Shown: in pieces, positions 3,917 through 63,544 of the stretch
Layout of the letters: every line of letters begins with the position of its first letter
How positions within the stretch are numbered: the stretch's first letter is position 1
NCBI GenBank assembly: GCA_963746465.1
Contig: CAVVAY010000005.1
Span: forward strand, 297,725 to 361,724
Length of the DNA stretch: 64,000 nucleotides
Direction: 5' to 3'
Origin: an uncultured Actinomycetota bacterium
GTDB taxonomy: Bacteria; Actinomycetota; Actinomycetes; JACCUZ01
Translations under genes and position numbers: made by a program
Notes under the pieces: model-generated
What the model was told of the DNA's origin: nothing
Database searches by the model: none
What the model saw: only the letters and a program-made list of their open reading frames with translations

Positions 3917-5146
3917 TCAGGTCGCCGAGGGCGCCGGCGCCTGCTCCGGGTCTCGGAAGTGCGTCACGCCGGGCACCAGGAACACGGCGTACGTCGTCAC
4001 GAGCAGCACAGCGGCTGCGAACCAGCCGACCGTCGCGATGCCGACCGAGGTGGCGACGGCGGGCGCCAGGGCCAGCCCGACCGGGTCCAACGCGAAGGTG
4101 GCCAGCGACTCGACGGAGAAGACCCGGCCCTGGATCGACGGGGGGTAGGCCAGCTGCAGCGAGCTGAACCAGAGGACGGCGAAGATCGAGATGCCGCCCC
4201 AGGCCACCACCAACACGACGGCGAAGACGTAGAGCGGTACGTCGACCGCGAGGCAGGCCATCACCGCAGCCATGGGTGCCACCGCGTGCATCGCGGCCAG
4301 CCCCTCGCGCCGCGGTTTGAGCCGCATGGCCACCAGGGAGCCGAGGATCATCCCGGCGGGGGTGCAGGCCATCAGCACGCCGTAAGCGCCGTCGCCGTAC
4401 CTCTCCTCGGCCACCAACGGCATCAGGACCTTCATCGGCGCGAAGGCGAAGAGCACCTGCACGGTGCCCTGGATCATCACCACGGTGACCCAGGGCCGGC
4501 GGAGCACGACCTGGATGCCCTCGCGGGCCTCGTGCAGCGCGGCCTTGAGGCCCTCCGGCGCCTGCTCGGCGACCGCCGGCAGCCGCAGCACGAGGAGGGT
4601 CGCGAGGCTCAGGCCGTAGGTCGCGGCGTCCAGCAGCAGCGCCGGGCGGGACCCGACCGTCGCCACCAGGACGCCGCCGACCGCCGAGCCGAGCAGCAGG
4701 CCGCCGCGGTTGGTGAGCTGGACGACCGCGTTCACCTCGCGAAGCCGCTCGGCCGGTACCACCTGCGGCAGCACTGCGCGCCAGGCGGGCTGGAACAGCG
4801 CGACACCGACGCCCTCGAGCACCGCGAAGCAGACGAGCAGCCCGACGGGGGACGAGGACGGCGCCAGCGCGTAGCCGAGGACGGCGACGGCCCGCGCCAC
4901 GTCCGAGCAGGCCATCACCGCGGTGCGCGAGTACCGGTCCGCGACCACACCCCCGGCGAGCAGGGTGAGCCCCATCGCCGCCGAGTCGGCCGCGAGGACG
5001 ACACCGAGGGTGCCCGCCCCGTGGGTCTTCACGAGCAGCGTGGCCAGGGCGACGATGGTCAGCCCGTGGCCGACGGTGTTCACGGCCTGGCCGAACCACA
5101 GGAGGGCGAACCGCCGGTCCCGCATCAGCTCGCGCACGCCGGACAT
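3917..5146 (-). CDS. MFS transporter
   Basis: 409 aa with about 12 hydrophobic helices and an FALLWFGQ-type N-terminus. The stop lies 14 nt before the epimerase start. Confidence 0.75.
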   Translation of the reverse strand: MSGVRELMRDRRFALLWFGQAVNTVGHGLTIVALATLLVKTHGAGTLGVVLAADSAAMGLTLLAGGVVADRYSRTAVMACSDVARAVAVLGYALAPSSSPVGLLVCFAVLEGVGVALFQPAWRAVLPQVVPAERLREVNAVVQLTNRGGLLLGSAVGGVLVATVGSRPALLLDAATYGLSLATLLVLRLPAVAEQAPEGLKAALHEAREGIQVVLRRPWVTVVMIQGTVQVLFAFAPMKVLMPLVAEERYGDGAYGVLMACTPAGMILGSLVAMRLKPRREGLAAMHAVAPMAAVMACLAVDVPLYVFAVVLVVAWGGISIFAVLWFSSLQLAYPPSIQGRVFSVESLATFALDPVGLALAPAVATSVGIATVGWFAAAVLLVTTYAVFLVPGVTHFRDPEQAPAPSAT

Positions 5147-5243: not shown

Positions 5244-5642
5244 GTGTTCACCGTCACTGTCCGCGACCACATCATGATCGCGCACAGCTTCACCGGGGAG
5301 GTGTTCGGTTCCGCCCAGCGGCTTCATGGTGCGACGTTCGTCGTCGACGCCACGTTCCGCGGTGAGGAGCTCGACGCCGACGGCATCGTCGTGGACATCG
5401 GCCGGGCCAGTGAGCAGCTGCACGCAGTGCTGGCTGAGCTGACCTACCGCAACCTCGACGACGACCCGTCATTCGACGGCCGCAACACGACCACCGAGGT
5501 GGTGGCCCAGGAGATCGCCAACCGGCTGGTGACCCGGATCCACGACGGGGCGCTCGGCAAGGGCGCGCGCCAGCTGACCGGGCTCGCGGTGACCCTGCAC
5601 GAGTCGCACATCGCGTCGGCGAGCTACGAACGGTTGCTGTGA
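5244..5642 (+). CDS. 6-pyruvoyl-tetrahydropterin synthase / QueD-like (COG0720) paralog with degenerate metal/catalytic motif
   Basis: [16 protein letters not shown]...RLHGATF. The PTPS fold signature is present, but the canonical Cys-x-HGH is replaced by HGA and no Cys precedes it. GTG start with GAGGAG RBS. The stop overlaps the next gene's start (GTGA). Confidence 0.65.
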
Positions 5643-6694
5643 GCCCAGGCCCCGGGACGGTGTACGTCGTCGTACCGGACGGGATCGATGACCTGCGCCG
5701 ACCGAGCGGCGGCAACACCTACGACCGGCGGGTGTGCGACGGCCTGCGGGCCCGTGGGTGGACGGTGCACGAGAGTCCGGCCGGCCGCTGGCCGAACGAG
5801 GACCCGGCGACCCACGACCGGCTGGCCCGGGTGTTGTCGGCAGTGCCCGACGGGGCGACCGTCCTGGTCGACGGGCTGGTGGGGTCGGCGGCCCCCCGTG
5901 AGCTCGCCGCCGCTGCGCGTCGGCTGCGGATCGTCCTGCTCGTTCATCTGCCGCTGGGCGTGCGCGGCGACGAGGCGACACGTGCCGGCGAGCGGGCTGC
6001 GCTGCGTTGCGCAGCCGAGGTGGTGACGCCGAGCCGGTGGACGCGGTCCTGGCTGCTCAGCAGCTACGGTCTGCCGCGCGAGGCGGTGCACGTCGCCGTT
6101 CCGGGGGCGACGGCCGCACCGCTCGCCGTGGGCACGGCCGGCGGTGGCCGGCTGCTGTGCGTCGCGGCTGTGACGCCACTGAAGGGCCACGACCTGCTGG
6201 TGGCCGCCTTGGCATCGGTCGCCGACCTGCAGTGGCGCTGCACCTGTGTGGGATCGCTGGAGGTCGACCCGGAGTTCGCGCGAGCGCTGCAAGGACAGGC
6301 GGCCGCTGCTGGGATCGGTGACCGGCTGACGTTTCCGGGGCCGTCGGCGGACGACGATCTCCGGCGGACGTACGCCGATGCGGACCTGCTGGTGCTCGGC
6401 TCGCGCACCGAGAGCTGGGGCATCGTCGCATCCGAGGCCCTTGCTCGAGGCGTTCCGGTGCTCGGACCCGACGTCGGCGGCCTGCCGGAGGCACTGGGGG
6501 CCGGCACGACCCGGCCGGTGCCTGGGCTGCTGGTTCTCCCAGAGGATGCCGCGGCCCTCGGGATGGGGCTGCGGCGCTGGCTGACCGAGGAGCCAGTGCG
6601 CCAGGCGTGGCGGACGGCGGCGCGGGAGCGTCGGGACTCGTTGCCGACCTGGGACGACACCGTCGACCAGGTGGCCGCGGTCCTGCACCGGTGA
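5639..6694 (+). CDS. Glycosyltransferase family 1 (GT4-like)
   Basis: C-terminal GT1 signature ([19 protein letters not shown]...GGLPE). Translationally coupled to the upstream PTPS-like gene. Confidence 0.75.
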
Positions 6695-6706
6695 ACTGTC
6701 GGGGAG

Positions 6707-8060
6707 TCAGGAACAGCTCTCGACGTCCCAGGCGAGCAGGATGTCCTCGTCCGCGAGCGCGACGTGCCGGTTTACCAGCTTCAAGCCGTCGGCGACGTGG
6801 TCGAGGCCCAGGTCCCCGACACCCTCGATGCCTGCACCGACGACGGTCGGCGAGATCGACACGACCAACCGGTCGAGCAGCCGCTCCCGCATCAGCGAGG
6901 TGATGACGCGGCTTCCCCCCTCGACCATGACCGAGGCCACACCATCGGCCCGCAGGTCGGCGAGCACCTGGCTCAGATCCAGACCATGGCTTCCGTCATC
7001 GATCTCCCGGACCGCGACCCCAGCTGATTCGAGGGCGGCCTTCCGGTCGCGATCTGCTGGTCGGCGGCAGTAGACGACGGTGGCCGCGTCACCGTCGAAG
7101 ACCTTGGCGGCTGGGGGAGTACGCAACGTCGAGTCCAGCAGCACCCGGATGGGGGACGCGCCAGGTACCAGCCGCACGGTCAGCTGAGGGTCGTCGCACG
7201 CAGCGGTCTCCGATCCGACGAGGACCGCGTCGCAGGCAGCACGGAGGGTGTGGGAGACCCGGCGTTCCGTCTCCCCACTGATCCACTTCGAGTCGCCGGT
7301 TCTCGTGGCGATCCGCCCGTCGAGGGTCTGCGCGTACTTCACCATGACGTACGGGCGGTCCGGTCGCGGCCGCACGTTCCCGATCAGGCTGGCCACGTCG
7401 ACGGGCTCCGAGGGTGGCTCCGGCAAGGCGCTGCCTGCGGGGCGCAGGTGACCCATGCGCGCCGCCTTGGCCGACAGGTACGCGCGGTTGCGTGCTTGCG
7501 CCGCGGTCGGCAGCGGGACGATCTCGGTGACCTCCAGACCGGCTTTGCGCAGCGCGAGTGCTTTCGCCGGGTTGTTGGAGAGCAGCCGCAAAGAGCGGAC
7601 CCCCAGACAGGCAAGCACCTCACCGGCATACGAATAGTCGCGGGCGTCCACCGGAAGCCCGAGGCGGGTGTTGGCGTCGACCGTGTCGGCTCCGAGGTCC
7701 TGCTCGATGTAGGCCTGCAGCTTGTTGACCAGGCCGATGCCGCGGCCTTCGTGGCCGGTGAGGTAGAGGACGACGCCTCGACCTGCCGCAGTCACCTGTC
7801 GGAGGCTGGTGCGGAGCTGCACGCCGCAGTCGCACCGCAGGGACCCGAGTGCATCCCCCGTCAGACACTCCGAGTGCAGCCTGGTGAGCACCGGTTCGTC
7901 AGTGGTGAGGTCCCCTCGGGAGAGCGCGAGATAGACATGCCCTGTCGGAACCTCGAACGCCCGCGCCTGGAACTCGCCGTAGGGAGTCGGGAGCACGACG
8001 GCGCCCACGTCACGGACCGCAGGCGTCGGTTCATGCTGGTGCTGCAGGGGAAGGGTCATG
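6707..8060 (-). CDS. Fusion of GTP cyclohydrolase II (RibA-like) and a RibD C-terminal pyrimidine reductase domain
   Basis: N-terminal half: RLHSECLTGDALGSLRCDCG and VLYLTGHEGRGIGLVNKLQAY (zinc cysteines and the catalytic Tyr are retained). C-terminal half: YVMVKYAQTLDGRIATRTGDSKWISGE...VLVGSETA..DDPQLTVRL...VMVEGG, a RibD_C reductase. Best start is ATG at 8060 with a GGAGG RBS (the ORF track extends to 8221). Confidence 0.8.
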
Positions 8061-8099
8061 CTGCCGATTACCTCCTGACCAGAAGGTGAAACCTGCGAC

Positions 8100-9107
8100 A
8101 TGAGGGTGCTTACCCAAGCCAGGGTTGTGCAATTCACCGGCCCTCGTGCAGTAGAGATCACGACGGTCGACGTGTGCCAGCCGGCCGGTACGGTCCTTCT
8201 GCGAACTCTGTTCTCGGGCATCAGCTCCGGGACGGAGCTGCTGGCCTATCGTGGCGAGCTGCCACCGGACACCGCTCTGGACGACACGCTCTCCGGGCTC
8301 AGCGGTGGCACCTTCCGGTATCCGTTCTCCTACGGCTACAGCTGTGTTGCCGAGGTCGAGGTGGGCACGGAGGCGTTTCCTGCCGGGTCGACGGTGTTCG
8401 CCTTCGCTCCCCACCAGGACAGGTTCGCCATGGCCGAGGCGGACCTGATCCGCCTGGACGACGACGTCGACCACCGGCAGGCGACCTTGTTCCCCTTGGT
8501 GGAGACAGCGCTGCAGCTGACCCTCGACGCGGGCGAGGTCTTCGAACGACCGGTCGTCGTGGTGGGTCAGGGGGCAGTGGGCCTGCTCGTTGCACTGATG
8601 CTGCAGCGAGCCGGTGCCAAGGTCCTCGCGGTCGAGCCGCAGCCATGGCGCCGCGACGTCGCCGCATCCGTGGGAGTCGACGCGGTGACCCTGGACCAGG
8701 CGTCCGGCGTCGTGATGGGCCTCACGCACGGGAGCGGCGTGCCGCTCGTAGTCGAGGCCTCCGGCAGCCCGGCTGCGCTGGTGAGCAGTCTCTCGCTGCT
8801 GGCCCACGAAGGGGTAGCACTCGTGGGGTCCTGGTACGGCACGAAGCCGGTCACGCTGCCGCTCGGCGGTGCCTTCCACCGGCGACGGCTCACCATCAAG
8901 AGCAGCCAGGTGTCGACGATCCCTGCTGACCAGCAGTCGCGCTGGGACGTCCCGCAGCGGCGGGCGTCAGCTCGTTCGCTGCTGTCTCAGCTGCCGCTCG
9001 CTGCCATCGCCACGACCGAGTTCGCCTTTTCGGCTGCCGCCGACGCCTACTCTGCTCTCGACCAAGGCGTCGAGGGTGTGCTGCACGTGGCCCTGCGCTA
9101 TGAGTGA
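8100..9107 (+). CDS. Zinc-type medium-chain alcohol dehydrogenase/reductase
   Basis: MDR fold features: a Rossmann GQGAVGLLVALML motif and an N-terminal catalytic domain. Confidence 0.7.
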   Translation: MRVLTQARVVQFTGPRAVEITTVDVCQPAGTVLLRTLFSGISSGTELLAYRGELPPDTALDDTLSGLSGGTFRYPFSYGYSCVAEVEVGTEAFPAGSTVFAFAPHQDRFAMAEADLIRLDDDVDHRQATLFPLVETALQLTLDAGEVFERPVVVVGQGAVGLLVALMLQRAGAKVLAVEPQPWRRDVAASVGVDAVTLDQASGVVMGLTHGSGVPLVVEASGSPAALVSSLSLLAHEGVALVGSWYGTKPVTLPLGGAFHRRRLTIKSSQVSTIPADQQSRWDVPQRRASARSLLSQLPLAAIATTEFAFSAAADAYSALDQGVEGVLHVALRYE

Positions 9108-9124
9108 CCCGCCGCCCTGCTGAG

Positions 9125-9850
9125 CTACGGCGCGTGGCCGGGAAGGCCCACCAGGGACAGGACATCTCGAAGATGGGATCCCTGCTCGCCAGGCGCCGGT
9201 ACGAGGAGCACAGGGCACCCGGCAGCAACGGCACCACCGTCGGTCATCGGGTTGTCGCCCACCATCAACGTGTCGCCCGGCGCCGTGTCCAGCAGCGAGC
9301 ACGCGGCCCGGAACACGGCCGGGTCGGGCTTGCAAGCGCCGAACTCCAACGAGAGGACCCAGGCATCCACCCAGGCGGACAGGCCCAGCCGCTCGAACAC
9401 CGGCCGCAGGTCGAAGCCGGTGTCACTCACGACGGCGACGGGGACACGGCCCAGGTGCAGCGCTCGCAGGACGTCCTCGGCGCCGGGACACAGGTCCCAG
9501 GAGGTGGGATCGACGGTCAGGTCGTAGAGAGCACCGCTGAGGCCCTCCGCGAGTCGGTCCGCGCCGGCCGCGGCATAGAGACTCGTCCACACCTGCCGAT
9601 GACGCGTGTTGTCCAGATCACGGCCCTTGGCCAGCTCTGCAGGGGTCCCGGCGGTAGCCAGCACCCGGTCCCAGACACGGCCGGCGGCCTCTGCCTCGGC
9701 CGGGACGCCGAGCTTCTCGGCAGCCCTCCGCACCAGCGCGCCGTCCTGGCCGCGGAGCCGGATCAGGGTGTCGCCGGCGTCGAACAGCACGGCTCGGACG
9801 GCCACCTCAGTCCGGCCCGGGTGCGTCGTCGGAGCGCATATCGGAGCCAC
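9125..9850 (-). CDS. HAD-superfamily hydrolase (phosphatase)
   Basis: Motif I FDAGDTL. Motif IV VGDNPMTDGG. GTG start 8 nt after the tRNA-His 3' end. An alternative internal GTG gives VAVRAVLFDAGDTL. Confidence 0.7.
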   Translation of the reverse strand: MAPICAPTTHPGRTEVAVRAVLFDAGDTLIRLRGQDGALVRRAAEKLGVPAEAEAAGRVWDRVLATAGTPAELAKGRDLDNTRHRQVWTSLYAAAGADRLAEGLSGALYDLTVDPTSWDLCPGAEDVLRALHLGRVPVAVVSDTGFDLRPVFERLGLSAWVDAWVLSLEFGACKPDPAVFRAACSLLDTAPGDTLMVGDNPMTDGGAVAAGCPVLLVPAPGEQGSHLRDVLSLVGLPGHAP

Positions 9851-9857: not shown

Positions 9858-9934
9858 TGGGGTGAGTGACGGGACTTGAACCCGCGGCCCCCTGGACCAC
9901 AACCAGGTGCTCTACCAGCTGAGCTACACCCACC
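9858..9934 (-). tRNA. tRNA-His (anticodon GTG), with the extra 5' G-1 and encoded CCA
   Basis: Cloverleaf by eye: acceptor GTGGGTG/CACTCAC, anticodon loop TTGTGGT, T-arm GGTTCAAGTCC. Confidence 0.9.
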
Positions 9935-12314: not shown

Positions 12315-13712
12315 CTACCAGGTGCTGGGCTTGCCCTTCTGGAACAGCCAGGCGTCGAAGAAGGCTGTCAGGTCGCTGCCGGAGTACGTCGTCGCGTACG
12401 CCGTGAACTCCTGCACCGTCGCGTTGCCGTACTTCTTGCTCGCGTGCCAGTCGCGAAGCATCGGGAAGAACAACTCGTCGCCGAGCCTGACCCGCAGTGC
12501 CTGCAGGGCCATGGCGCCCCGCACGTAGATCGAGTCCGCGAACATGGTCTCGGCGCCTCGCGGGTTGCCCGGCGGAGGGCGCCAGATCGGGGACGTGGCC
12601 TTCTTGGCGTAGTAGCGGTTGAAGAACGACTGCGCAGAGCGCTTGCCGACGTGCTCGCTCCAGACCCAGGAGGCGAACTCGGCGAAGCCTTCGTTGACCC
12701 AGATGTCGCGCCAGCGGCTCAGCGTGACCGAGTCGCCGAACCACATGTGCGCCAGCTCGTGGGCGACGGTCAGCTCACCAGGTGGCCGGTCGTAGAGCGG
12801 CTTGGTCTGCGTCTCCAGCGCGTAGCCCACCTTCTTCGCGTCGTCGACCACGGCACCCGTCGAACCGAAGGGGTACGGGCCGAACAGGCCCGCGAAGTAG
12901 TCGGTCATCGCCGGCACCTTGCGGAGCACGGCGCGGCTCTTGGCGGCGACCTTGGGATCGGTGGCGATGTAGAAGGGGACTCCGCCCGCGGTCGTGCCGG
13001 TGCGGACCCGGAAGACCCCGGTGGTCACGGTGGCGAGGTAGGTCGCCATCGGGCGTCCGCTGTGCCAGCGGAAGGTGCGCCAGCCGTTGCGACGAGAGGT
13101 CGTGCCGCGCAGCTCGCCGTTGGCCACCGCGGTGATGCCGGCCGGGACGGTGACCCGGAAGTCGAACAGCGCCTTGTCGCGGGGTGTGTCGTTGCACGGG
13201 AACCAGGTCGGGGCGCCCTGCGGCTCGCCGACGACGAAGGCACCGTCCGCCGTCGCGACCCAGCCGTCCAGCGAGCCGTCGGGGTCGGTCAGGGCCCGTG
13301 GTCGCCCGGCGTAGCGCACCACGGTCAGGAAGCGGTGACCATCGCGCACCGGGGTCGCCGGGGTCACCACCAGGTCGTGGCCGTGGGTGCCCCGCTGGGT
13401 GAACGTCGCCGGCTGCCCGTCCACGGAGACCGCAGAGACCCGCATCGGTCGACGGAGGTCGAGGTGGAACGTGCGCAGGCGGGTGGTGGCGGTCGCAGTG
13501 ACTGCCGCGCGCCCGGCCAGGTGGCGCCGCACCGGGTCGTAGCGCAGGGACAGGCCGTAGTGGGCCACGTCGTAGCCGACGTTGCCCTGCCGCGGGAAGT
13601 AGGGGTCGCCGGCACCGGAGGGCCGACCGGCGGCCGATGCCGGAGTGACGGTGGCCGCGAGGGCGACGAGTGCCAAGGTCAGGCCGGCCGGCCGGTTCAT
13701 CGACGTACGCAC
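12315..13712 (-). CDS. Secreted M1-family zinc metallopeptidase
   Basis: Signal peptide (LTLALVALAATVTPASA). HELAHMWFGD zinc motif. Downstream Glu. NEGFAEF. Confidence 0.8.
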   Translation of the reverse strand: MRTSMNRPAGLTLALVALAATVTPASAAGRPSGAGDPYFPRQGNVGYDVAHYGLSLRYDPVRRHLAGRAAVTATATTRLRTFHLDLRRPMRVSAVSVDGQPATFTQRGTHGHDLVVTPATPVRDGHRFLTVVRYAGRPRALTDPDGSLDGWVATADGAFVVGEPQGAPTWFPCNDTPRDKALFDFRVTVPAGITAVANGELRGTTSRRNGWRTFRWHSGRPMATYLATVTTGVFRVRTGTTAGGVPFYIATDPKVAAKSRAVLRKVPAMTDYFAGLFGPYPFGSTGAVVDDAKKVGYALETQTKPLYDRPPGELTVAHELAHMWFGDSVTLSRWRDIWVNEGFAEFASWVWSEHVGKRSAQSFFNRYYAKKATSPIWRPPPGNPRGAETMFADSIYVRGAMALQALRVRLGDELFFPMLRDWHASKKYGNATVQEFTAYATTYSGSDLTAFFDAWLFQKGKPSTW

Positions 13713-13787
13713 GAGTCGTTCCTCCTGGTCGGGACGGACGGGCGGACGCTACTCCCGCCGTCTGCGGCGCGCCGGTGATCGTCACTA

Positions 13788-15518
13788 GTGGCCCGGGGAA
13801 GCCCGCGCTGGGCGAGGATTGGCCACGTGGCCCCAGGCGCCGGACCCGATGCGCTGCTCGTCGCCCTCGAAGGGCTCGGCGAGCAGGTCGCTGAGCTGCG
13901 CCTGCCGCTGCCCATCGCCGGGGCCGAGCCGGCCCGCCAGCTGCGCCGCGAGATCGCCGACCAGCTCGACGACTACGTGCTCCCGCGGCTGCGCCGGCTC
14001 GACGCCCCGTTGCTGGCCGTGGTCGGGGGTCCGACCGGGGCCGGGAAGTCGACCCTGGTCAACAGCCTGGTCGGTAAGCGGGTCAGCGCCTCGGGGGTCC
14101 TCCGCCCGACGACCCGGTCCGCCGTGCTGGCCTACCACCCGGGCGACAACGCGTGGTTCGAGCAGCCGCGCGTCCTGCCGAGCCTCACCCGGACCACTTT
14201 GGCATCGACCGACCCCACGACCCTGCAGCTGGTGCCCAGCGACGGCATCCCGGCCGGGCTGGCCGTGCTCGACGCGCCGGACATCGACTCCGTGGTCACC
14301 CGCAACCGCGAGCTGGCGACCCAGCTGCTCGCGGCGGCGGACATGTGGCTGTTCGTCACCACCGCGGCGCGCTACGCCGACGCCGTGCCATGGGAGTTCC
14401 TGCGAGCGGCTGTCACCCGGGGCACCGCGGTCGCGGTCGTCCTGGACCGGGTGCCGCCGGAGGCCACCACGGAGGTCCGTGCCCACCTGGCCGGCATGCT
14501 GACCGAGCACGGCCTGGGCGACGCACCGTTGTTCGTCGTACCGGAGACCACGGCGTACGACGCCATGCTGCCGGCTGCGGTCGTCGACCCGATCCGCAGC
14601 TGGCTGCACGCGATCGCCGGCGACTCAGGTGTGCGCGGCGCTGTGGTCCGGCACACCCTGGACGGTGCGGTGCGCTCGCTGGCCGCCCGGGTGTTCGTGC
14701 TGGCCGCCGCCGCCGACGCCCAGGCCGAGGCCGTGGTCCGCCTCGAGCGCGAGGTCGAGTCGGCGTACGACGCCGCACTGGCCCAGGTCGACGAGGCCAG
14801 CAGCGACGGGTCCCTGCTGCGCGGCGAGGTGCTCGCCCGGTGGCAGGAGTTCGTCGGCACCGGCGAGATGATGCGCGCCCTGGAGTCCAAGGTCGCCCGG
14901 CTCCGCGACCGGGTGACCGCGGCCGTCCAGGGCAAGCCGGCTCCCGGCCAGGACCTCGCCGAGGCTCTCGAGTCAGGCGTCGAGGCGCTGGTCCGCTCGG
15001 CCGCCGACACCGCTGCCGAGCGGGCCGGGACGGTGTGGGCCGCCGACCCGGCCGGCGCTGCGCTGCTCGGCGACGAGGACCTGCGCCGTAGCTCGCCGGG
15101 GCTCGCCGCGGCGACCGAGCGGGCCGTGCGCGAGTGGCAGGACGGCGTGCTCGAGATGGTCCGCACCCAGGGCCAGAGCAAGCGCACGACGGCGCGCTAC
15201 CTGGCCCTTGGCGTCAACGGGGTCGGGCTGATGCTGATGATCGTGGTCTTCGCGCACACCGGCGGCCTGGTGGCGGGCGAGATAGCCGTGGCCGGCGGCG
15301 CGTCGGCGGTGAGCCAGAAGATCCTCGAGGCGATGCTCGGCGACCAGGCCGTCCGGTCGCTGGCCGAGCAGGCGCGGCGCGACCTGCACCGCCGGGTGAC
15401 CGAGCTGCTCGAGGCCGAGCGGCGCCGGTTCACCGACCGGCTGGGGCCGGTCGGCGTGCACGAGTTCGCCGGCGCATCGCTGCGCGCGGCCGTCGAGGAC
15501 GTCGAGGCCGCCAGATGA
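13788..15518 (+). CDS. Dynamin-like GTPase, cytosolic partner (DynA-like)
   Basis: P-loop GGPTGAGKSTLVNSLVG. DAPDID (G3). Long coiled-coil C-terminal region. First gene of a pair. Confidence 0.7.
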   Translation: MARGSPRWARIGHVAPGAGPDALLVALEGLGEQVAELRLPLPIAGAEPARQLRREIADQLDDYVLPRLRRLDAPLLAVVGGPTGAGKSTLVNSLVGKRVSASGVLRPTTRSAVLAYHPGDNAWFEQPRVLPSLTRTTLASTDPTTLQLVPSDGIPAGLAVLDAPDIDSVVTRNRELATQLLAAADMWLFVTTAARYADAVPWEFLRAAVTRGTAVAVVLDRVPPEATTEVRAHLAGMLTEHGLGDAPLFVVPETTAYDAMLPAAVVDPIRSWLHAIAGDSGVRGAVVRHTLDGAVRSLAARVFVLAAAADAQAEAVVRLEREVESAYDAALAQVDEASSDGSLLRGEVLARWQEFVGTGEMMRALESKVARLRDRVTAAVQGKPAPGQDLAEALESGVEALVRSAADTAAERAGTVWAADPAGAALLGDEDLRRSSPGLAAATERAVREWQDGVLEMVRTQGQSKRTTARYLALGVNGVGLMLMIVVFAHTGGLVAGEIAVAGGASAVSQKILEAMLGDQAVRSLAEQARRDLHRRVTELLEAERRRFTDRLGPVGVHEFAGASLRAAVEDVEAAR

Positions 15519-15570: not shown

Positions 15571-17220
15571 ATGATGGCGCGGCTGCGCGGGCGGCACCGT
15601 CGGGCCGACCTTCCCGGGATGCTTGCCGCGCTCGACGAGGCGGTCGAGGCTCTCGACGGACGGGTCGCCGAGCCGGCGCTGCTCGACCGTGCCCGTGCGG
15701 TCTCGACCCGCGCGGGGGAGCGGCTGCGGCTGTCCGGCGAGCACACGGTGGTCGCCCTGGCCGGGTCCACCGGCAGCGGCAAGTCCTCGCTGTTCAACGT
15801 GCTGTCCGGGGAGGAGTTCTCGCCGGTCGGCGTCCGCCGGCCCACGACGTCGAAGGCCTACGCCAGTGTCTGGGGCTCGGAGGGGGCGGCCCCGCTGGTC
15901 CAGTGGCTCGGCGTGCCGCGGCGGCAGACCACCTGGCGGCACGGTCCGGGACTGCGGGACGAGGAGCTCGGTGACCTCGACGGCCTGGTGCTGCTCGACC
16001 TCCCCGACCACGACTCGAACGTCGTCGAGCACCAGCACGAGGTCGACCGGCTGGTCGAGCTCGTCGACCTGCTGGTGTGGGTGGTCGACCCGCAGAAGTA
16101 CGCCGACCAGCTGCTGCACGAGCGCTACCTGCGGCGGCTCACCGGCCACCAGGCGGTCACGGTCGTCGTCCTCAACCAGATCGACACGGTGAACCCGTTC
16201 GCTGCCGCCGAGTGTGCCGAGGACCTCCGGCGGCTGCTCGACGACGACGGGCTGCGGCGCTCCCCGGTGCTCACGACCTCGGCCCGCACCGGTGCCGGCA
16301 TTGACGGGCTCCGCGCGCTGCTCGCCGATGCGGTCTCGGTGCGCCGGGCGCGCAACGACCGTCTGGTCGCCGACATCGAGGAGGTCGTCGACTCGCTGAT
16401 GCCGGCCGTCTCGGCCGACGAGCCCACGGGGGTCGCCTCGGGCGAGCGCAGCCGACTGGTCGAGGCACTGTCGACCTCGGCCGGTGTTCCCGTGATCGGC
16501 GCGGCCGTGGAGGAGTCCTGGCAGCTGCGGGCGGGTGGCCTGCTCGGCTGGCCACCCACCCGTTGGGTGCAGCGCCTGCGCCCAGACCCGCTTCGTCGCC
16601 TGCATCTCAAGGGCGATGCCAAGAGGCAGGTGCGCTCGGTGATGGTGCGCTCGTCGGTCCCCGAGCCCACTCCGGTGCAGCGGGCACAGGTCGACACCGC
16701 GCTGCGACAGGCCTGCGACGCGGTGTCGAGCGACCTGCCGCCGGCGTGGCAGCGGGCCGTCCGCGGCGCTGCGGACGGGCGGTCGGCCGACGTGCGTGAC
16801 CGGCTCGACCAGGCCGTCGTCAGCACCGACCTGGGCATCGACCGGGTACCCCTGTGGTGGCGCGCCGGGGGCGCGCTGCAGTGGCTGCTCACCGCCGCGG
16901 CGGTCGTCGGTGGGCTCTGGCTGCTCGCGCTTGCCTTCGGTTCCTACCTGCGGCTGCCGGACCCGCCGACACCCGACGTGGCCGGCTTCGCGCTGCCCAG
17001 CCTGCTGTTCGTGGGCGGGGTGCTGCTCGGGCTGGTGCTCAGCCTCGCGGGCCGGTTGCTCGTGCGCGGCGGTGCCGTGGCCCGTCGGAAGCGGGCCGAG
17101 TCCCGGCTACGAGCAGGCATCGAGAAGGTCGCCGACGAGCTGATGCTGGAACCCGTTGCCGCCGAGCTGGACCGGCACGCCCGGGCGCGGGTCGCGCTGG
17201 ACCGGGCTCGCACCGGCTGA
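15571..17220 (+). CDS. Dynamin-like GTPase, membrane-anchored partner (DynB-like)
   Basis: P-loop GSTGSGKSSLFNVLSG. DLPDHD. Two C-terminal TM helices (LQWLLTAAAVVGGLWLLALAF; LLFVGGVLLGLVLSLAG). Confidence 0.7.
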   Translation: MMARLRGRHRRADLPGMLAALDEAVEALDGRVAEPALLDRARAVSTRAGERLRLSGEHTVVALAGSTGSGKSSLFNVLSGEEFSPVGVRRPTTSKAYASVWGSEGAAPLVQWLGVPRRQTTWRHGPGLRDEELGDLDGLVLLDLPDHDSNVVEHQHEVDRLVELVDLLVWVVDPQKYADQLLHERYLRRLTGHQAVTVVVLNQIDTVNPFAAAECAEDLRRLLDDDGLRRSPVLTTSARTGAGIDGLRALLADAVSVRRARNDRLVADIEEVVDSLMPAVSADEPTGVASGERSRLVEALSTSAGVPVIGAAVEESWQLRAGGLLGWPPTRWVQRLRPDPLRRLHLKGDAKRQVRSVMVRSSVPEPTPVQRAQVDTALRQACDAVSSDLPPAWQRAVRGAADGRSADVRDRLDQAVVSTDLGIDRVPLWWRAGGALQWLLTAAAVVGGLWLLALAFGSYLRLPDPPTPDVAGFALPSLLFVGGVLLGLVLSLAGRLLVRGGAVARRKRAESRLRAGIEKVADELMLEPVAAELDRHARARVALDRARTG

Positions 17221-32883: not shown

Positions 32884-35424
32884 TCAGCCGCGGGCGTCGC
32901 GGGCTTGGGCGCGCAGAGCCCGGGCCACGCCGTCCCGCGACTCGCCGACCAGCCGTCGCAGCGCGGGGGCCGCGTCGCCGTGCGCGGCCAGCCACCGGTC
33001 CGCGGCGTCCACCGTCGACTGCTCGGCCAGCAGCGTCGGGAACAGCCCGATGACCACGTTCTGCGCGGTCTCGTTGGTCCGCTCGTCCCACACCCGGGTC
33101 AGCGACTCGAAGTACGGCGCGACGTAGGGGCGCAGCAGGTCCAGCTGGCCCGCCTGCGAGAAGCCGCCGATCACGGCCGTCTGGATCGCGTTGGGCAGCT
33201 CGTCGCCGTCCACCACCGAGGTCCAGGCCTCGGACTTGGCGGCCGCGGTCGGCCGGGCTGCCAGCGCGGCGGCGGCCTGTCGGCGTCCGGTGGCGGTGTC
33301 GTCGGAGTCCAGCTCGCGCTCGACCTCGAGCTCGTCGGCCAGCCCGGCGGCCACCAGCTGGTGCAGCAGGTGCCAGCGCAGGTCGGTGTCGATGGTCAGC
33401 CCGGCCAGCTGGTCCGAGCCGTCGAGCAGGCCGCGGACCACCGCAAGGTGCTCGTCGGAGATCGAGGCCGAGGAGAAGGCGCGGGCCAGCTGCAGCTGGG
33501 CGTCGCTGCCGGCCTCGGCGGCACGCAGCAGGTCGAGGAAGCCGTCGGCCAGCCGCCGGCGGGTCTCGTCCCGCCGGGCCGGATCGGTGTAGAGGACGGC
33601 AGCGGTCTCGGCCTGACGCAGCAGGGTGCGCATCACCGAGCTGTCGGTCTCGCGGCCGACACCGCGGAGCACCAGCGTGAGGTAGGCCTGGGTCGACATC
33701 TCGGCGTCGCGGGTCATGTCCCAGGCCGCCGACCAGCACAGCGAGCGCGGCAGGGTGTCCTCGAAGTCGCCGATCGACTCGGTCAGCGTCGCGAGCGACT
33801 GCTCGTCCAGCCTGATCTTGGCGTAGGTCAGGTCGTCGTCGTTGACCAGGACGAGGTCCGGCCGGGCGACGCCCACCAGCTCGGGCAGGTCGGTTCGGGC
33901 CCCGGTGACGTCGAGCTCGACCCGGTCGCGGAGGACCAGCCCGCCGTCGGTGCGGTCGTAGAGGCCCACCGCGAGGCGGTGCGAACGCAGCGTCGGCCAC
34001 TGCTCCGGCGCGGTCTGCACGACGGTGAAGGACGAGAACTGCCCGTCGTCGTCGACCGCGAACTCCGGGTGAACCGTGTTGACGCCGGCCGTCTCGAGCC
34101 ACTCCGCCGACCATGCCTTCAGGTCCCGGCCGGAGGTCTCCTCCAGCTTGCCCAGCAGGTCCGCCAGCGTCGTGTTGCCCCACGCGAAGGCGCGGAAGTA
34201 CTGCCGGATGCCGGCCAGGAACTCGTCTCGGCCGACCCAGGCGGCGAGCAGCTTGAGGACCGAGGCGCCCTTGGCGTAGGTGATGCCGTCGAAGTTGACC
34301 TCGACGTCCTCGAGGTCGTGGATCTCCGCCGCGATCGGGTGGGTCGAGGGCAGCTGGTCCTGCCGGTAGGCCCAGGTCTTGTCGGTGTTCGCGAAGGTGG
34401 TCCACGCCGAGGTCCACCGGGTCGCCTCGGCCGCCGCCAGCGTGCTCGCCCACTCGGCGAACGACTCGTTGAGCCAGAGGTCGTCCCACCAGGTCATCGT
34501 CACCAGGTCGCCGAACCACATGTGGGCCATCTCGTGCAGGATCGTGACGGCCCGGCGCTCGTAGGACACCTGCGGCACGCGCGAGCGGAACACGTAGTCC
34601 TCGTTGTGGGTGACGCAACCGGCGTTCTCCATCGCCCCCGAGTTGAACTCCGGGACGAACAGCTGGTCGTACTTCGCGAACGGGTAGGGCATGTCGAAGA
34701 TGCGCTCGAAGAACTCGAAACCCTGCCGGGTCTCCCCGAAGATCACGTCCGCGTCCAGGTGCGGGGCCAGCGACGCACGGCAGTACAGGCCGAGGGGGAT
34801 GACCCGGTCACCGTCGCGGTACTCACCGTCGACGCGGGTGTACGGACCGGCGACCAGCGCCGTGATGTACGACGACAGCCGCTCGGTCGGGGCGAACCGC
34901 CACGTCGCGTTGCCCAGGCCGACCGGCTCGGGCTCGGGCGTCGGCTGGTTGGAGACCACGTGCCAGTCCGCCGGTGCGGTGACCGTGAAAGCGAACGTGG
35001 CCTTGAGGTCGGGCTGCTCGAAGACCGTGAACATGCGGCGCGAGTCCGCGACCTCGAACTGCGTGTACAGGTAGACGGACTTGTCGACCGGGTCGACGAA
35101 CCGGTGCAGCCCCTCGCCGGTGTGCATGTAGCGGCACAGCGCGCGGACCCGCAGCTCGTTGTCGGCAGCCAGGTCGTCCAGCGCGACCCGGGCGCCGTCG
35201 TACACCTGGCCCGGGTGCAGCGGCCGGCCGTTGAGCATGATCTCGTCGACCCGGTCGGCGACGAGGTCGATGAACGTCCGGGCGCCCGGCTCGGTGCAGC
35301 GGAACCGGACGGTCGTCTCCGACCCGAAGGTCACCTCGCCCTCGGTCAGGTCGAGGGCGACGTCGTACGACTCGACCTCGATCAGCCGCGCGCGGGACTG
35401 GGCCTCGTCGCGGGTCACGTTCAT
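32884..35424 (-). CDS. pepN: Aminopeptidase N (M1 family)
   Basis: GAMENAG. HEMAHMWFGDLVT zinc motif. WLNESFA. ATG at 35424. Confidence 0.9.
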   Translation of the reverse strand: MNVTRDEAQSRARLIEVESYDVALDLTEGEVTFGSETTVRFRCTEPGARTFIDLVADRVDEIMLNGRPLHPGQVYDGARVALDDLAADNELRVRALCRYMHTGEGLHRFVDPVDKSVYLYTQFEVADSRRMFTVFEQPDLKATFAFTVTAPADWHVVSNQPTPEPEPVGLGNATWRFAPTERLSSYITALVAGPYTRVDGEYRDGDRVIPLGLYCRASLAPHLDADVIFGETRQGFEFFERIFDMPYPFAKYDQLFVPEFNSGAMENAGCVTHNEDYVFRSRVPQVSYERRAVTILHEMAHMWFGDLVTMTWWDDLWLNESFAEWASTLAAAEATRWTSAWTTFANTDKTWAYRQDQLPSTHPIAAEIHDLEDVEVNFDGITYAKGASVLKLLAAWVGRDEFLAGIRQYFRAFAWGNTTLADLLGKLEETSGRDLKAWSAEWLETAGVNTVHPEFAVDDDGQFSSFTVVQTAPEQWPTLRSHRLAVGLYDRTDGGLVLRDRVELDVTGARTDLPELVGVARPDLVLVNDDDLTYAKIRLDEQSLATLTESIGDFEDTLPRSLCWSAAWDMTRDAEMSTQAYLTLVLRGVGRETDSSVMRTLLRQAETAAVLYTDPARRDETRRRLADGFLDLLRAAEAGSDAQLQLARAFSSASISDEHLAVVRGLLDGSDQLAGLTIDTDLRWHLLHQLVAAGLADELEVERELDSDDTATGRRQAAAALAARPTAAAKSEAWTSVVDGDELPNAIQTAVIGGFSQAGQLDLLRPYVAPYFESLTRVWDERTNETAQNVVIGLFPTLLAEQSTVDAADRWLAAHGDAAPALRRLVGESRDGVARALRAQARDARG

Positions 35425-35545
35425 GCGGGCGGCGGCGCTGAGCACGGACTGGTCACTTTCGTCAGAGGGGTCGACGAATCCTCGCACGCGGGTGCGCGCG
35501 TCGCTGACGGGGAATGCCCCCCGAGGGGCCGAGGTTGTCGCGATC

Positions 35546-36190
35546 GTGACCTCCCCCGCGCCGACGCCGTCCGATCTGCCCGAGAACGCCCCGACCATCG
35601 CCGACTTCTGGTTCGACCCGATCTGCCCGTGGGCCTGGATCGCGTCCCGTTGGATGCTCGAGGTCGAGCAGGTGCGCGACGTGACGGTGCGCTGGCACGT
35701 CATGTCGCTGGCCTACCTGAACGAGGGTCGCGAGCTGCCGGAGAAGTACCGCGCGGTCATGGACGAGGCGTGGGGACCCGTGCGGGTCGTGGTGGCGGCC
35801 GTCGCGGCACACGGCGACGAGGTGGCCCTGCGCCTCTACACCGCGCTCGGCACCCGGTTCCACCACGAGGGCCGCCCGAAGGACCGCGCCACGATCGTGG
35901 ACGCGCTGACCGAGGTCGGCCTCCCGGTCGAGCTGGTCGACGCGATGGACTCCGACGTCTTCGACGAGGCACTGCGCAAGTCCCACCACGCCGGCATGGA
36001 CCAGGTCGGCTTCGAGGTCGGGACGCCGGTCGTCTCCGTCGAGGGCGTCGCGTTCTTCGGTCCGGTCGTGTCGCCGGTGCCCCGCGGCGAGGCAGCCGGC
36101 CGGCTCTGGGACGGCGTCCGGCTGGTCGCCGGCACCGACGGCTTCTTCGAGCTGAAGCGCTCCCGTACCCGGGACCCGATCTTCGACTGA
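35546..36190 (+). CDS. DsbA-like thioredoxin-fold protein
   Basis: ADFWFDPICPWAW (the CPxx redox motif is CPWA). Start codon uncertain (GTG at 35546). Confidence 0.6.
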   Translation: MTSPAPTPSDLPENAPTIADFWFDPICPWAWIASRWMLEVEQVRDVTVRWHVMSLAYLNEGRELPEKYRAVMDEAWGPVRVVVAAVAAHGDEVALRLYTALGTRFHHEGRPKDRATIVDALTEVGLPVELVDAMDSDVFDEALRKSHHAGMDQVGFEVGTPVVSVEGVAFFGPVVSPVPRGEAAGRLWDGVRLVAGTDGFFELKRSRTRDPIFD

Positions 36191-36487: not shown

Positions 36488-37135
36488 TCAGGTCACGATC
36501 CGCATCGGGCGACCCCTGTCGTCGTACGCCGGGTGCTCGGGCAGCGTGCGGGCCGAACCCGCCAGCCAGCGCCGGCCGGACCACGCCGCGGCCAGGGCGT
36601 CGAGCCCGTCGTCGCCGCTCGGCAGCTCCCCGAGCCCGGGCAGCCAGCCGGTGAGCAACGACACCCGGGCTGCCCGCCCGGCCGCGGTCTTCTTCGACGG
36701 GAGCGGCCCGGTGCCGGCCAGCTCGGCCAGGCTGAGCTCGGGGTGGACCTCGACCAGCCGCGGGTCGTCGGCCACTGCGTCCACCTCGCGGATCTTGGGC
36801 ACCAGGTGCCAGGTCTGCACCGACATGCCCAGCCCGCCGGTCAGCTCGCGGTGCAGCCGGCCACCCTCGGCGTAGCTGGCGGCCGACAGCACGCCGCGCG
36901 GCGGGGCCAGGAACACCCGGGAGTGGGCCCGGCCCAGCACGGCCTTCGCCAGCAGGTCGCAGTCCCGCCGGCCGCGGGCGGGCAGGCCCACCGGCATGTC
37001 GACCGCCACGACGTCGGCCGGGACCGCGAGGGCCGCCGTGATGTCGGGGAAGCGGTGCCAGGCCACCCGGTCGCCCTCGACGAGCGCCCCGACCCAGCCG
37101 CCCCGGCAGCCGTCCACCCCGAGCACACGGGTCAT
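36488..37135 (-). CDS. DUF429-domain protein
   Basis: MTRVLGVDGCRGGWVGALVEG N-terminus typical of the DUF429 family. Confidence 0.55.
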   Translation of the reverse strand: MTRVLGVDGCRGGWVGALVEGDRVAWHRFPDITAALAVPADVVAVDMPVGLPARGRRDCDLLAKAVLGRAHSRVFLAPPRGVLSAASYAEGGRLHRELTGGLGMSVQTWHLVPKIREVDAVADDPRLVEVHPELSLAELAGTGPLPSKKTAAGRAARVSLLTGWLPGLGELPSGDDGLDALAAAWSGRRWLAGSARTLPEHPAYDDRGRPMRIVT

Positions 37136-37161
37136 GCAGCGGCCCTGCCAGACTGCCCGCC

Positions 37162-37647
37162 ATGCGCGTGCATCTCGGCTCCGACCACGCCGGTTTCGAG
37201 CTCAAGGCCCACCTGGCCGACCGGCTGCAGGAGCTCGGCTACGAGGTGGTCGACCACGGCCCGGTCGAGTACGACCCGGTCGACGACTACCCGCCGTACG
37301 TGCTGCGAGCGGCTGCTGCGGTCGTCAACGACGCCGGCAGCCTCGGCGTGGTGATCGGCGGCTCCGGCAACGGTGAGCAGATCGCCGCCAACAAGGTGCC
37401 CGGCGTGCGAGCCGCCCTGGCGTGGAACGACGACACGGCCGGGCTCAGCCGGCAGCACAACGACGCCAACGTGATCAGCGTCGGCGCCCGGATGCACACC
37501 GCCGACGAGGCCACCCGGCTGGTCGAGCGGTTCCTGACCACGCCGTTCAGCGGCGACGTGCGCCATGCCCGGCGGATCGAGATGATCGCGCACTACGAGC
37601 GGACGACGGAGCTTCCGGAGCTGCCGGCACCCCAGCAGCTCGAGTAG
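37162..37647 (+). CDS. rpiB: Ribose-5-phosphate isomerase B
   Basis: MRVHLGSDHAGFELK...GGSGNGEQIAANK canonical RpiB. Confidence 0.9.
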   Translation: MRVHLGSDHAGFELKAHLADRLQELGYEVVDHGPVEYDPVDDYPPYVLRAAAAVVNDAGSLGVVIGGSGNGEQIAANKVPGVRAALAWNDDTAGLSRQHNDANVISVGARMHTADEATRLVERFLTTPFSGDVRHARRIEMIAHYERTTELPELPAPQQLE

Positions 37648-44952: not shown

Positions 44953-45049
44953 GCCGGGCCGACCCGGGGCCTTCCGGTCGCTGCGTCGGCCATCATGGTT
45001 CCCTCCTCCTGGAGAGCATCGTCGGCACGCCGTCCCCTGAGGAGGACCC

Positions 45050-46096
45050 TTGCACGTCCTGGTGACCGGGGGCTGCGGCTTCGTCGGCTCGCACGTCGTC
45101 GATGAGCTGCTCGCTTCGGGTCACGAGGTGCGTGTGCTAGACGACCTGTCAACCGGTCGCCGCGAGCACCTGCGGGACGGGGTCGACCTGCGGCTGGGGG
45201 ATGTCACCGCGGAGGCAGACGTCGTGGACGCCCTCGGCGGCATCGACGCCGTGTGCCACCAAGCGGCGAAGGTGGGTCTCGGCAGCGGGGTCGCCGACCT
45301 GGCCGAGTACGTGCGTCGCAACGACCTCGGCACCGCGGTGCTGCTGTCGGCGATGGCGGCGGCCCGCATCGCCCGACTGGTGCTCGCGTCGTCGATGGTG
45401 GTCTACGGAGAGGGCGGCTACGTCTGCGCCGAGCACGGGTCGGTTGCGCCCGGGCCGCGCATGCGGGCCGATCTCGACGGCGGCCGGTTCGAGCCGCCGT
45501 GCCCCGTGTGCGCGTCGCCGCTGTCGGTACGCGAGGTCGACGAGTCGGCGCGGCTCGACCCGCGCAACGGCTACGCCGCTTCCAAGGTGGCTCAGGAGCA
45601 CCTGGCCGCCACCTGGGCCGCCGTGACCGGACGGCCGGCGGTGGCACTGCGCTACCACAACGTCTACGGACGGCGGCTGCCCCGGGACACGCCGTATGCC
45701 GGGGTGGCCGCGCTGTTCCGGTCGGCGCTGGCTCGGGGGGAGGCGCCGCGGGTCTTCGAGGACGGGCGGCAGCTGCGCGACTTCGTGCACGTGCAGGACG
45801 TGGCCGTCGCCAACCGGCTCGCCCTGGAGTCGTCGGACGTCGCGACCGGGGGGCTCACGGCGTACAACATCGCGAGCGGGCGACCGCGCACCGTGGGCGA
45901 GCTGGCCGGTGCACTGGCCGACGCGGTCGGCGGGCCGGCGCCGGTGGTCACCGGGGAGTACCGGCTCGGCGACGTCCGACACGTCGTCGCCTCGCCCGCC
46001 AGGGCAGCCGCCGAGCTCGGCTTCCACGCGGCCACCGACCTCGAGACCGGCGCAGGTGACTTCGCGGCTGAGGGCACCCCGGACGGGGGCACGTGA
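45050..46096 (+). CDS. NAD-dependent epimerase/dehydratase (UDP-sugar epimerase-like)
   Basis: VTGGCGFVGSHVVDEL Rossmann motif. YxxxK (YAASK). Confidence 0.8.
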   Translation: MHVLVTGGCGFVGSHVVDELLASGHEVRVLDDLSTGRREHLRDGVDLRLGDVTAEADVVDALGGIDAVCHQAAKVGLGSGVADLAEYVRRNDLGTAVLLSAMAAARIARLVLASSMVVYGEGGYVCAEHGSVAPGPRMRADLDGGRFEPPCPVCASPLSVREVDESARLDPRNGYAASKVAQEHLAATWAAVTGRPAVALRYHNVYGRRLPRDTPYAGVAALFRSALARGEAPRVFEDGRQLRDFVHVQDVAVANRLALESSDVATGGLTAYNIASGRPRTVGELAGALADAVGGPAPVVTGEYRLGDVRHVVASPARAAAELGFHAATDLETGAGDFAAEGTPDGGT

Positions 46097-46183
46097 GGTC
46101 TTACGGGTTCGTGACGTCGGCGGCGGTCAGGTCCGTGCTGCTCTAGCGTCGGAGGAGCAGGTCATGACCTCCGGAGGAGCCAG

Positions 46184-46878
<695 letters not shown>

Positions 46879-46882
<4 letters not shown>

Positions 46883-48036: not shown

Positions 48037-48202
48037 TCCACGCACTCTGGGTCAAGGGCGCCTTGCGCAACCGCCACCACGACGTGTCAGGGCAGACCGG
48101 GGCGGACGGCTGGAACGGGTCACACCGATAGCCGGCAGTCGACCAGGGTGGTGTCATCTTTTGGTAAGGGTTCGCACCGCGGAGGATGGCACCGTTCCCG
48201 GG

Positions 48203-62263: not shown

Positions 62264-63544
<1,281 letters not shown>

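Follow-up and report, generated by a model that had tools for sequence, protein, structure and literature searches.

The closest described relative of the locus considered here is the SCO6648–SCO6655 gene cluster of Streptomyces coelicolor, which includes SCO6650, a member of a COG0720 subfamily termed PTPS-IV that was reported in 2017 with the signature FGPAQ and a neighborhood containing PF00925 and PF01872 (PMC5445326). S. coelicolor has three RibA-like copies, and the third paralog is given in a 2026 review only as "a completely new function" (PMC13151069). The locus in question is a run of five genes at positions 5244–9850 of a 64-kb stretch of DNA of about 72% G+C, from contig CAVVAY010000005.1 of an uncultured Actinomycetota bacterium (the window, i.e., the whole stretch that was analyzed), coding for a PTPS-IV protein, a GT4-family glycosyltransferase, a fusion of GTP cyclohydrolase II (GCH II) with a RibD_C-type reductase, a BchC-like dehydrogenase and a HAD phosphatase. 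In S. coelicolor, the GCH II of the cluster is presumably present besides the copy in the rib operon; SCO6655 is said, in work by Spoonamore et al. from 2006, to give formylated formamidopyrimidine (FAPy) since Met replaces its catalytic Tyr, and the SCO6650 structure paper reportedly presents PTPS-IV as built for binding a 2-amino-4-oxo face. Comparison across related loci supports the five genes as a conserved functional unit and shows them to be a cut-down, mixed version of a cluster that is widespread in actinobacteria, noticed first in S. coelicolor in 2006 and already known, if uncharacterized. A preliminary description of the stretch, made from the sequence alone, went too far in proposing a candidate undescribed pathway, given its kinship with SCO6650–SCO6655 and the previously published link of PTPS-IV to the two domains.

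At this G+C content the majority of long open reading frames (ORFs) are spurious; real genes were picked by third-position GC, and their domains were assigned with Pfam and NCBIfam. The five genes are:

5244–5642, plus strand: PTPS-IV, an SCO6650-type T-fold protein of 132 aa (PF01242, E 2e-23)
5639–6694, plus strand: GT4-family glycosyltransferase (Pfam Glycos_transf_1) of 351 aa (PF00534, E 1e-27)
6707–8059, minus strand: GCH II + RibD_C fusion of 450 aa (PF00925, E 3e-56; PF01872, E 9e-47)
8100–9107, plus strand: BchC-like MDR-superfamily dehydrogenase ("ADH-B") of 335 aa (PF00107, E 2.5e-16)
9125–9850, minus strand (9125–9805 in the source annotation): HAD-IA phosphatase, REG-2/HDHD3-like (PF00702)

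All five are present and intact, and, as the preliminary description had claimed, the PTPS-IV gene is translationally coupled to the glycosyltransferase gene, its stop overlapping the start of the latter in a GTGA at 5639–5642. Each of the five ORFs is full length when compared with its homologs, and the ribosome-binding site GAGAGGAG lies upstream of the PTPS-IV gene. The fusion gene is separated by 12 bp from the GT4 gene and is divergent from the dehydrogenase gene, with their start codons 40 bp apart. Its start had been placed at that of a 504-aa ORF and needs correction: the true start is the ATG at 8059, with a GGAGG upstream, which yields a 450-aa protein identical to P0121 of the source annotation. 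The HAD gene starts 15 codons later in that annotation (~9805), giving 226 aa.

With the S. coelicolor cluster, the window shares PTPS-IV (69% identity to SCO6650, PDB 3d7j, E 1.5e-55), an adjoining GT4 and BchC-like dehydrogenase, and a GCH II within the cluster. In the window, the GCH II is of the Tyr type and fused to the reductase, a HAD is present and the dehydrogenase is a distant paralog (38% identity), whereas in the S. coelicolor-type cluster the GCH II is a protein by itself with Met in place of the switch Tyr, a creatininase-family gene is adjacent and RibD_C is mostly missing. The latter type also holds a CDP-alcohol phosphatidyltransferase, a methyltransferase and LPG_synthase_TM, all absent from the window.

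The PTPS-IV family is large, with at least 8000 clusters at 90% identity and at least 600 matches in species-level genomes of Actinomycetota, S. coelicolor included; a crystal structure of one member became available in 2008. The genome scan finds it in Micromonospora, Streptomyces, Actinoplanes, Nocardioides, Pseudonocardia, Solirubrobacterales, Gaiellales and others. Nine partner families were mapped by tblastn onto 80 PTPS-IV loci, with frequencies calculated from the 60 well-flanked ones (L-numbers below are our labels for loci). This recovers a core consisting of the dehydrogenase (60/60, 100%), the GT4 (98%), GCH II (83%) and RibD_C (72%), along with a further set of membrane and other proteins: the flippase-like LPG_synthase_TM (97%), the CDP-alcohol phosphatidyltransferase (90%), a SAM methyltransferase (88%) and, in 52% of the loci, a protein of about 560 aa that matches the Sulfatase domain weakly. 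Chance falls far short of accounting for the association, and the gene order is the same in the precomputed gene calls of three genomes. The conservation of the neighborhood, on which the preliminary description had staked its proposal, is thereby confirmed, with PTPS-IV, GT4 and dehydrogenase adjacent in 98–100% of the loci.

The sulfatase-domain protein has around five N-terminal hydrophobic (transmembrane) helices, an architecture of the LtaS, EptA and OpgB type, these being enzymes that transfer phospho-head groups from lipids onto acceptors in the envelope. Some genomes combine it with the CDP-alcohol phosphatidyltransferase in a single protein of 723–773 aa. A PDB sequence search returned no match for the sulfatase-domain and LPG_synthase_TM proteins and, for the CDP-alcohol phosphatidyltransferase, weak matches to choline phosphotransferases only; as of June 2026, NCBIfam holds no curated model specific to any protein of the cluster. 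Genes of the CDP-alcohol transferase/sulfatase-domain kind were located in L002 (6760–8931, minus strand), L104 (12578–14899, plus) and L086 (14264–15955, plus).

The Streptomyces loci of the survey are the SCO6648–SCO6655 cluster itself (between SCO6650 and the L083 protein, identity is 98.5%). Met occupies the Tyr switch of GCH II in 23 Streptomyces-type loci, mostly without RibD_C, and a creatininase-family gene adjoining GCH II was seen in L026 only, where the pair lies at 13705–14481 (minus) and 14382–15191 (plus). The Streptomyces creatininase-family protein weakly resembles ArfB, the FAPy deformylase of archaea. This pairing of a Met-switch GCH II with an ArfB-like creatininase, mostly in the absence of RibD_C, suggests that the pathway is entered in Streptomyces by two GCH III/ArfB-like steps.

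A second kind of cluster emerged from the contexts of the fusion homologs, those of Geodermatophilaceae and relatives (L086 from Modestobacter, L104 from Geodermatophilus, and the metagenomic L087, L088, L089 and L105), in which the fusion and dehydrogenase genes are divergently oriented, with a different PTPS paralog following the dehydrogenase. These often also have the HAD, methyltransferase, CDP-alcohol phosphatidyltransferase, GT4 and LPG_synthase_TM; L086 and L104 carry the last four, the CDP-alcohol transferase with or without the sulfatase domain. The PTPS paralog of these clusters is 25–30% identical to PTPS-IV, keeps an H..HSH motif and has Glu at the position of the QueD Cys; it may, unlike PTPS-IV, still bind zinc. 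It was located in L086 (8551–8919, minus) and L087 (8544–8972, minus).

The window has the features of the fusion type in its fusion divergent from a type-B dehydrogenase and the HAD within the cluster. Its fusion is 64–86% identical to the homologs from fusion-type loci (84–86% to L088/L089) and its dehydrogenase 58–82% (58–62% in the type-B comparison), with values of 38% to the SCO6650-type dehydrogenase and 94% to that of L106. However, a type-B PTPS paralog is lacking in the window and the HAD is convergent to the dehydrogenase instead, while its PTPS-IV is of the SCO6650 type (79% identical to that of L001) and is accompanied by PF00925 and PF01872 as in the published PTPS-IV neighborhood. 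The GT4 is about 50% identical to those of both types. The window is therefore not a complete SCO6650-type cluster; it is a hybrid, with an SCO6650-type PTPS-IV, a fusion, dehydrogenase and HAD of the fusion type, and a GT4 about equally close to both. Another hybrid, L060, which belongs to a lineage differing from that of the window at the class level, has the fusion, dehydrogenase, PTPS-IV, GT4 and methyltransferase; no membrane gene was mapped to it. It lies in the same Solirubrobacterales metagenome-assembled genome (MFD04463.bin.2.227) as a complete cluster, L054. A reduced contig with PTPS-IV, GT4, RibD_C and GCH II also exists. Together, these cases indicate that the soluble enzymes behave as an exchangeable unit and that membrane-less copies can coexist with complete ones. 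Of a complete cluster, the window has just the soluble enzymes; either the membrane part is encoded outside this stretch or the organism makes no use of it.

The fusion has a GCH II half (~7457–8059) scoring 213.5 against a cutoff of 205.85 with TIGR00505 (ribA) and a RibD_C-type pyrimidine reductase half (~6707–7372) scoring 173.9 against 150.2 with TIGR00227 (ribD_Cterm). Alignment agrees with the preliminary description that the zinc Cys triad and the catalytic Tyr are retained, the latter, in NKLQAY, being the equivalent of Tyr105 of Escherichia coli RibA. By these residues and its score the first half qualifies as a GTP cyclohydrolase II (EC 3.5.4.25), with Tyr where the FAPy-forming SCO6655 type has Met. 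In the PDB, the N-terminal half matches RibBA (4i14) and RibA (2bz0) and the C-terminal half the DARPP reductase 6p8c, placing it closest to the 2,5-diamino-6-ribosylamino-pyrimidinone 5'-phosphate reductases. Both domains are present in all 120 fusion homologs among the matches listed. Given an intact GCH II joined to a 6p8c-like reductase, the conversion of GTP to a ribityl-diaminopyrimidine phosphate, as previously proposed, would be a sound first step.

The surroundings of the fusion are not those of riboflavin biosynthesis. When queries from a real rib operon (L096) were run by tblastn against the 64 kb, no deaminase, DHBP synthase, RibE or RibH was found, and the fusion gene alone was matched, in the case of the L096 RibD via the reductase half; the Pfam survey of the window is likewise without DHBP synthase, riboflavin synthase and lumazine synthase. 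Neither Pfam nor NCBIfam detects a cytidine-deaminase-type RibD N-terminal domain in the fusion, and an Rfam scan of the window at the gathering threshold returns four tRNAs and nothing else, an FMN riboswitch being among the elements not found. The locus is not a canonical rib operon, a point on which the preliminary description was correct.

The PTPS-like protein had been considered as potentially separate from QueD, and this too is upheld: it scores 41.6 against a cutoff of 89.25 with the NCBIfam QueD model and 37.0 against 125.5 with that of the PTPS/QueD family. In a HMMER alignment with the true PTPS 2g64, the catalytic Cys is replaced by Ala24, the HGH motif by HGA and the Asp-His pair by Thr-Tyr. 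With these replacements, which remove one of the three zinc-binding His along with the Cys and the Asp-His pair, it is neither QueD nor PTPS (EC 4.2.3.12) and is catalytically stripped in comparison with both; its sequence assigns it to the PTPS-IV subfamily of COG0720. Its signature reads FGSAQ, with FGPAQ in 10 of the 11 other sequences aligned; to these homologs it is 69–84% identical, and 60 of the 132 columns of the 12-sequence alignment are invariant.

The supposed alcohol dehydrogenase is a dehydrogenase of the MDR superfamily; Pfam gives no match to ADH_N (PF08240), and the best full-length match is to the BchC model (residues 7–317, score under the cutoff). By eye, "GISSGTE" and "GYS" stand at the presumed positions of the Cys and His zinc ligands; a single-sequence AlphaFold prediction reached a mean pLDDT of 32 and was unusable. 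The HAD matches TIGR02252 under its cutoff and has HDHD3 (3k1z) as its PDB relative. Its homologs in the fusion-type L104 and L105 (56–64% identity) are translationally coupled to, and overlap, the preceding gene, from which it follows that the HAD is a true member of the cluster, as had been supposed, and not a bystander belonging to the orn–tRNA-His locus next to it. The convergent arrangement of HAD and dehydrogenase recurs in L106.

With respect to the glycosyltransferase, the activity originally assigned stands and the family, GT1, does not: Pfam's "Glycosyl transferases group 1" corresponds to CAZy family GT4 and not to CAZy GT1. In NCBIfam and the PDB, the enzyme comes closest to MshA, BshA and the sucrose-phosphate synthase 6kih, whose acceptors are a small polyol-phosphate, sugar-phosphate or acid, although its scores against MshA and other GT4 models are far under their cutoffs (70.8 against 462.5). 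A match to a Pfam GT4-conflict model (PF20706, score 42, well under the 97 of the general PF00534) raised the idea of anti-phage defense, which was dropped as none of the six proteins submitted to PADLOC had a meaningful match.

Taken together, these observations can be read as pointing to a compact hybrid of the widespread actinobacterial SCO6650/PTPS-IV–GCH II pathway, a dedicated non-riboflavin branch from GTP whose end product is probably a lipid head group or envelope decoration; we regard this as the likely, if far from assured, explanation. Strong conservation of the neighborhood makes the earlier proposal of a dedicated GTP branch to a glycosylated molecule a reasonable one. By homology and its catalytic residues, the GCH II domain would open GTP to 2,5-diamino-6-ribosylamino-4(3H)-pyrimidinone 5'-phosphate, and the fused RibD_C domain, by homology and its conserved residues, would reduce this ribosyl compound to the ribityl form. 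As there is no deaminase step, the 2-amino-4-oxo face would be retained. The BchC-like dehydrogenase might then oxidize a secondary hydroxyl of the ribityl-phosphate chain, perhaps (with low confidence) the 2'-OH, to an Amadori-type ketone such as GCH I forms internally. Thereafter, in what is a speculative step, PTPS-IV, which is devoid of a metal site and of a catalytic triad, could bind the 2-amino-4-oxo heterocycle, hold the oxidized intermediate and promote ring closure or tautomerization to a dihydropterin-like product, for which a dihydroneopterin-phosphate-like pterin would be our low-confidence choice. The MshA-like GT4 may place a sugar on the polyol-phosphate, and the HAD may take off the phosphate.

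The last two steps have an analogy in mycothiol and phosphatidylinositol/phosphatidylinositol mannoside biosynthesis, wherein a GT4 acts on a polyol phosphate and a phosphatase follows (MshA with the MshA2 phosphatase; phosphatidylinositol phosphate synthase, phosphatase and PimA), and in the relatives of the window a CDP-alcohol phosphatidyltransferase adjoins the GT4; the polyol here would, however, be derived from GTP and not inositol. A parallel might also be struck with the pterin glycosides. Cyanobacterial biopterin glucoside and the limipterin and tepidopterin of Chlorobium start from GCH I and are made with a complete PTPS and sepiapterin reductase. What the window shares with these pathways is a heterocycle derived from GTP, together with a PTPS-family protein and a glycosyltransferase, but it starts at GCH II, has the stripped PTPS-IV, and has neither GCH I nor an SDR reductase in the cluster.

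Most genomes have this enzyme set together with a CDP-alcohol phosphatidyltransferase, LPG_synthase_TM, an LtaS/EptA-like transferase and a methyltransferase, and this is what makes a lipid or envelope product probable. In complete clusters, by analogy, CDP-diacylglycerol-dependent attachment, flipping and transfer would come next, and the end product is probably a phospholipid head group or cell-envelope decoration. The soluble cofactor, pigment or signal suggested in the preliminary description sits poorly with this union of the enzymes with CDP-alcohol phosphatidyltransferase, flippase-like and LtaS/EptA-like proteins in related loci. A fuller version, which we put forward only tentatively, would have the five-enzyme core as a GCH I-independent route to a new 2-amino-4-oxo-pyrimidine or pterin polyol glycoside that, in the majority of Actinomycetota, is put on a phospholipid by the CDP-alcohol phosphatidyltransferase, flipped outward and passed on by the LtaS/EptA-like enzyme, with the window as a soluble-only or accessory copy. 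Provision of ribitylamine for aminopentanetetrol-type phospholipids was considered and found unsupported, the literature on those lipids being confined to archaea and Aquificae and providing no biosynthetic link.

Several points weigh against a lipid-linked pathway of this kind. What the dehydrogenase, PTPS-IV, GT4 and HAD are proposed to do is drawn only from analogy at the family level. No CDP-alcohol phosphatidyltransferase, LPG_synthase_TM, methyltransferase or sulfatase-domain protein was found in the 64 kb by tblastn at E ≤ 1e-3 or E ≤ 1e-6, and the suggested tie to lipids thus comes by analogy with related loci and not from this window. The early steps vary between clusters, with Streptomyces having the Met-switch GCH II, the creatininase and mostly no RibD_C. 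In L088 and L089, whose fusion and dehydrogenase are closely related to those of the window, the PTPS gene is the fusion-type paralog, and the two PTPS proteins may differ in chemistry. Finally, a 2016 review, referring to unpublished work, has PTPS-IV acting in F420 synthesis (PMC5041015).

Among the competing explanations, the one closest to the above keeps the early steps and dispenses with ring closure: the product would stay a glycosylated 2,5-diamino-6-ribitylamino-pyrimidinone, comparable to the plant compounds vicine and convicine, with the dehydrogenase and PTPS-IV trimming or epimerizing the side chain, or PTPS-IV binding or carrying an air-sensitive intermediate. A GCH II and reductase without a deaminase, a PTPS-IV without any PTPS catalytic residue and a GT4 whose relatives take polyol-phosphate acceptors are all in keeping with it. 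Nevertheless, it leaves unexplained why the dehydrogenase and the T-fold protein are the most invariant partners (100% of loci), and the degree of conservation of PTPS-IV noted above points to a demanding active site and not a passive binder; we therefore deem it possible but unlikely. A role in supplying the pyrimidine precursor (5-amino-6-ribitylaminouracil or a relative) for F420/FO, a cofactor made by many actinobacteria, would fit both the review's claim concerning PTPS-IV and the match of the early enzymes to the archaeal/fungal type of route. In archaea and fungi, riboflavin/F420 synthesis likewise opens (GCH II/III, ArfB, ArfC/Rib7) with a cyclohydrolase and then a reductase that acts before deamination, and the Streptomyces subtype even has an ArfB-family neighbor. 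Yet, in place of a deaminase, lumazine synthase, riboflavin synthase and FO synthase, the window has a T-fold protein, dehydrogenase, GT4 and phosphatase; no deaminase or fbi/cof genes occur in it or in the related loci surveyed, and nothing in F420 synthesis calls for a GT4, a CDP-alcohol transferase or the flippase-like and LtaS-like partners, all of which renders this role improbable.

The two other accounts deny the locus a pathway of its own. That it is a decaying or rearranged remnant, with half of an SCO6650-type cluster beside half of a fusion-type one and the pathway no longer working, might be read from its hybrid composition without a membrane module, its position by tRNA-His (and that of a close relative's HAD/dehydrogenase pair by other tRNAs) and its base composition. 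Third-position GC is 0.86 for the GT4, 0.83 for the fusion, 0.83 for the dehydrogenase and 0.84 for the HAD, as against 0.91–0.96 for the flanking core genes (Mann-Whitney p = 0.003 for the cluster genes at 5639–9850) and 0.91 for PTPS-IV; later acquisition or low expression could be the cause. Decay is very improbable, however, in the face of five intact, full-length ORFs with their catalytic residues retained, the preserved GTGA coupling and ribosome-binding sites, the similar hybrid L060 in another class-level lineage, and metagenome relatives at 82–94% identity that still carry the genes. Hardly credible is the idea that the fusion is simply the housekeeping riboflavin enzyme amidst unrelated neighbors: while both its domains exceed the curated ribA and ribD_Cterm cutoffs, and the genome sequence surveyed is the 64-kb window only, that window has none of the deaminase, DHBP synthase, RibE, RibH or FMN riboswitch, and every close homolog with a readable context adjoins the same dehydrogenase and a PTPS-like gene; the several RibA-like copies of S. 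coelicolor also speak against it.

The literature search yielded no report joining GCH II with a CDP-alcohol phosphatidyltransferase, creatininase or glycosyltransferase in actinobacteria, and none that ties the cluster enzymes to a product or to lipid genes. If the lipid-linked pathway is correct, membrane-lipid head groups or envelope decorations made from GTP would form a class that had not been recognized before. The window in itself is of modest value as one more atypical copy; what has been gained through it is that the soluble core is modular, with the types mixing, that this core includes the HAD, and that membrane enzymes of the phospholipid type accompany it in nearly all cases.

Two features flank the cluster:

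3917–5146, minus strand: MFS transporter, divergent from PTPS-IV (PF07690, PF05977)
9858–9933, minus strand: tRNA-His, the boundary of the cluster beside orn and outside the pathway (ARAGORN, Rfam)

The transporter, with about 12 hydrophobic segments, is a possible exporter whose membership in the cluster is unproven; no homolog was seen adjoining the related clusters in the partner mapping. An unrelated MFS protein adjoins the hybrid locus L060, which is merely suggestive with regard to that of the window. The tRNA-His lies 8 nt from the start of the long HAD ORF and downstream of orn; in the close relative L106 (8071–8347), the HAD/dehydrogenase pair is beside tRNA-Gly, tRNA-Cys and tRNA-Val instead. 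When the window was checked for signs of a genomic island, there was no duplicate of the tRNA-His 3' end, no att-like repeat and no meaningful repeats; no consensus promoters or terminators were found.

The remainder of the window includes fpg/nei, an aldose epimerase, the MFS transporter, orn, tRNA-His, an SSB, an ABC-F protein, MMPL, MalQ and PepN. An Rv2466c-like mycothiol-dependent nitroreductase (35132–36190, plus), rpiB (37042–37647, plus) and tig-clpP-clpX (58991–63544, plus) are also present and, along with pepN and orn, represent actinobacterial housekeeping genes, placing the cluster in the core chromosome. Tandem dynamin-family GTPases (13788–15518 and 15571–17220, both plus) lie beside the SSB paralog and the ABC-F protein, and a second HAD-family hydrolase, unrelated to that of the cluster, is 48 kb away from it (57891–58643, minus). 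At 45041–49524 (plus), an NAD-dependent epimerase, a two-component system, a GT2 glycosyltransferase and a DUF2064 protein follow in series, and these may form a separate small glycosylation module.

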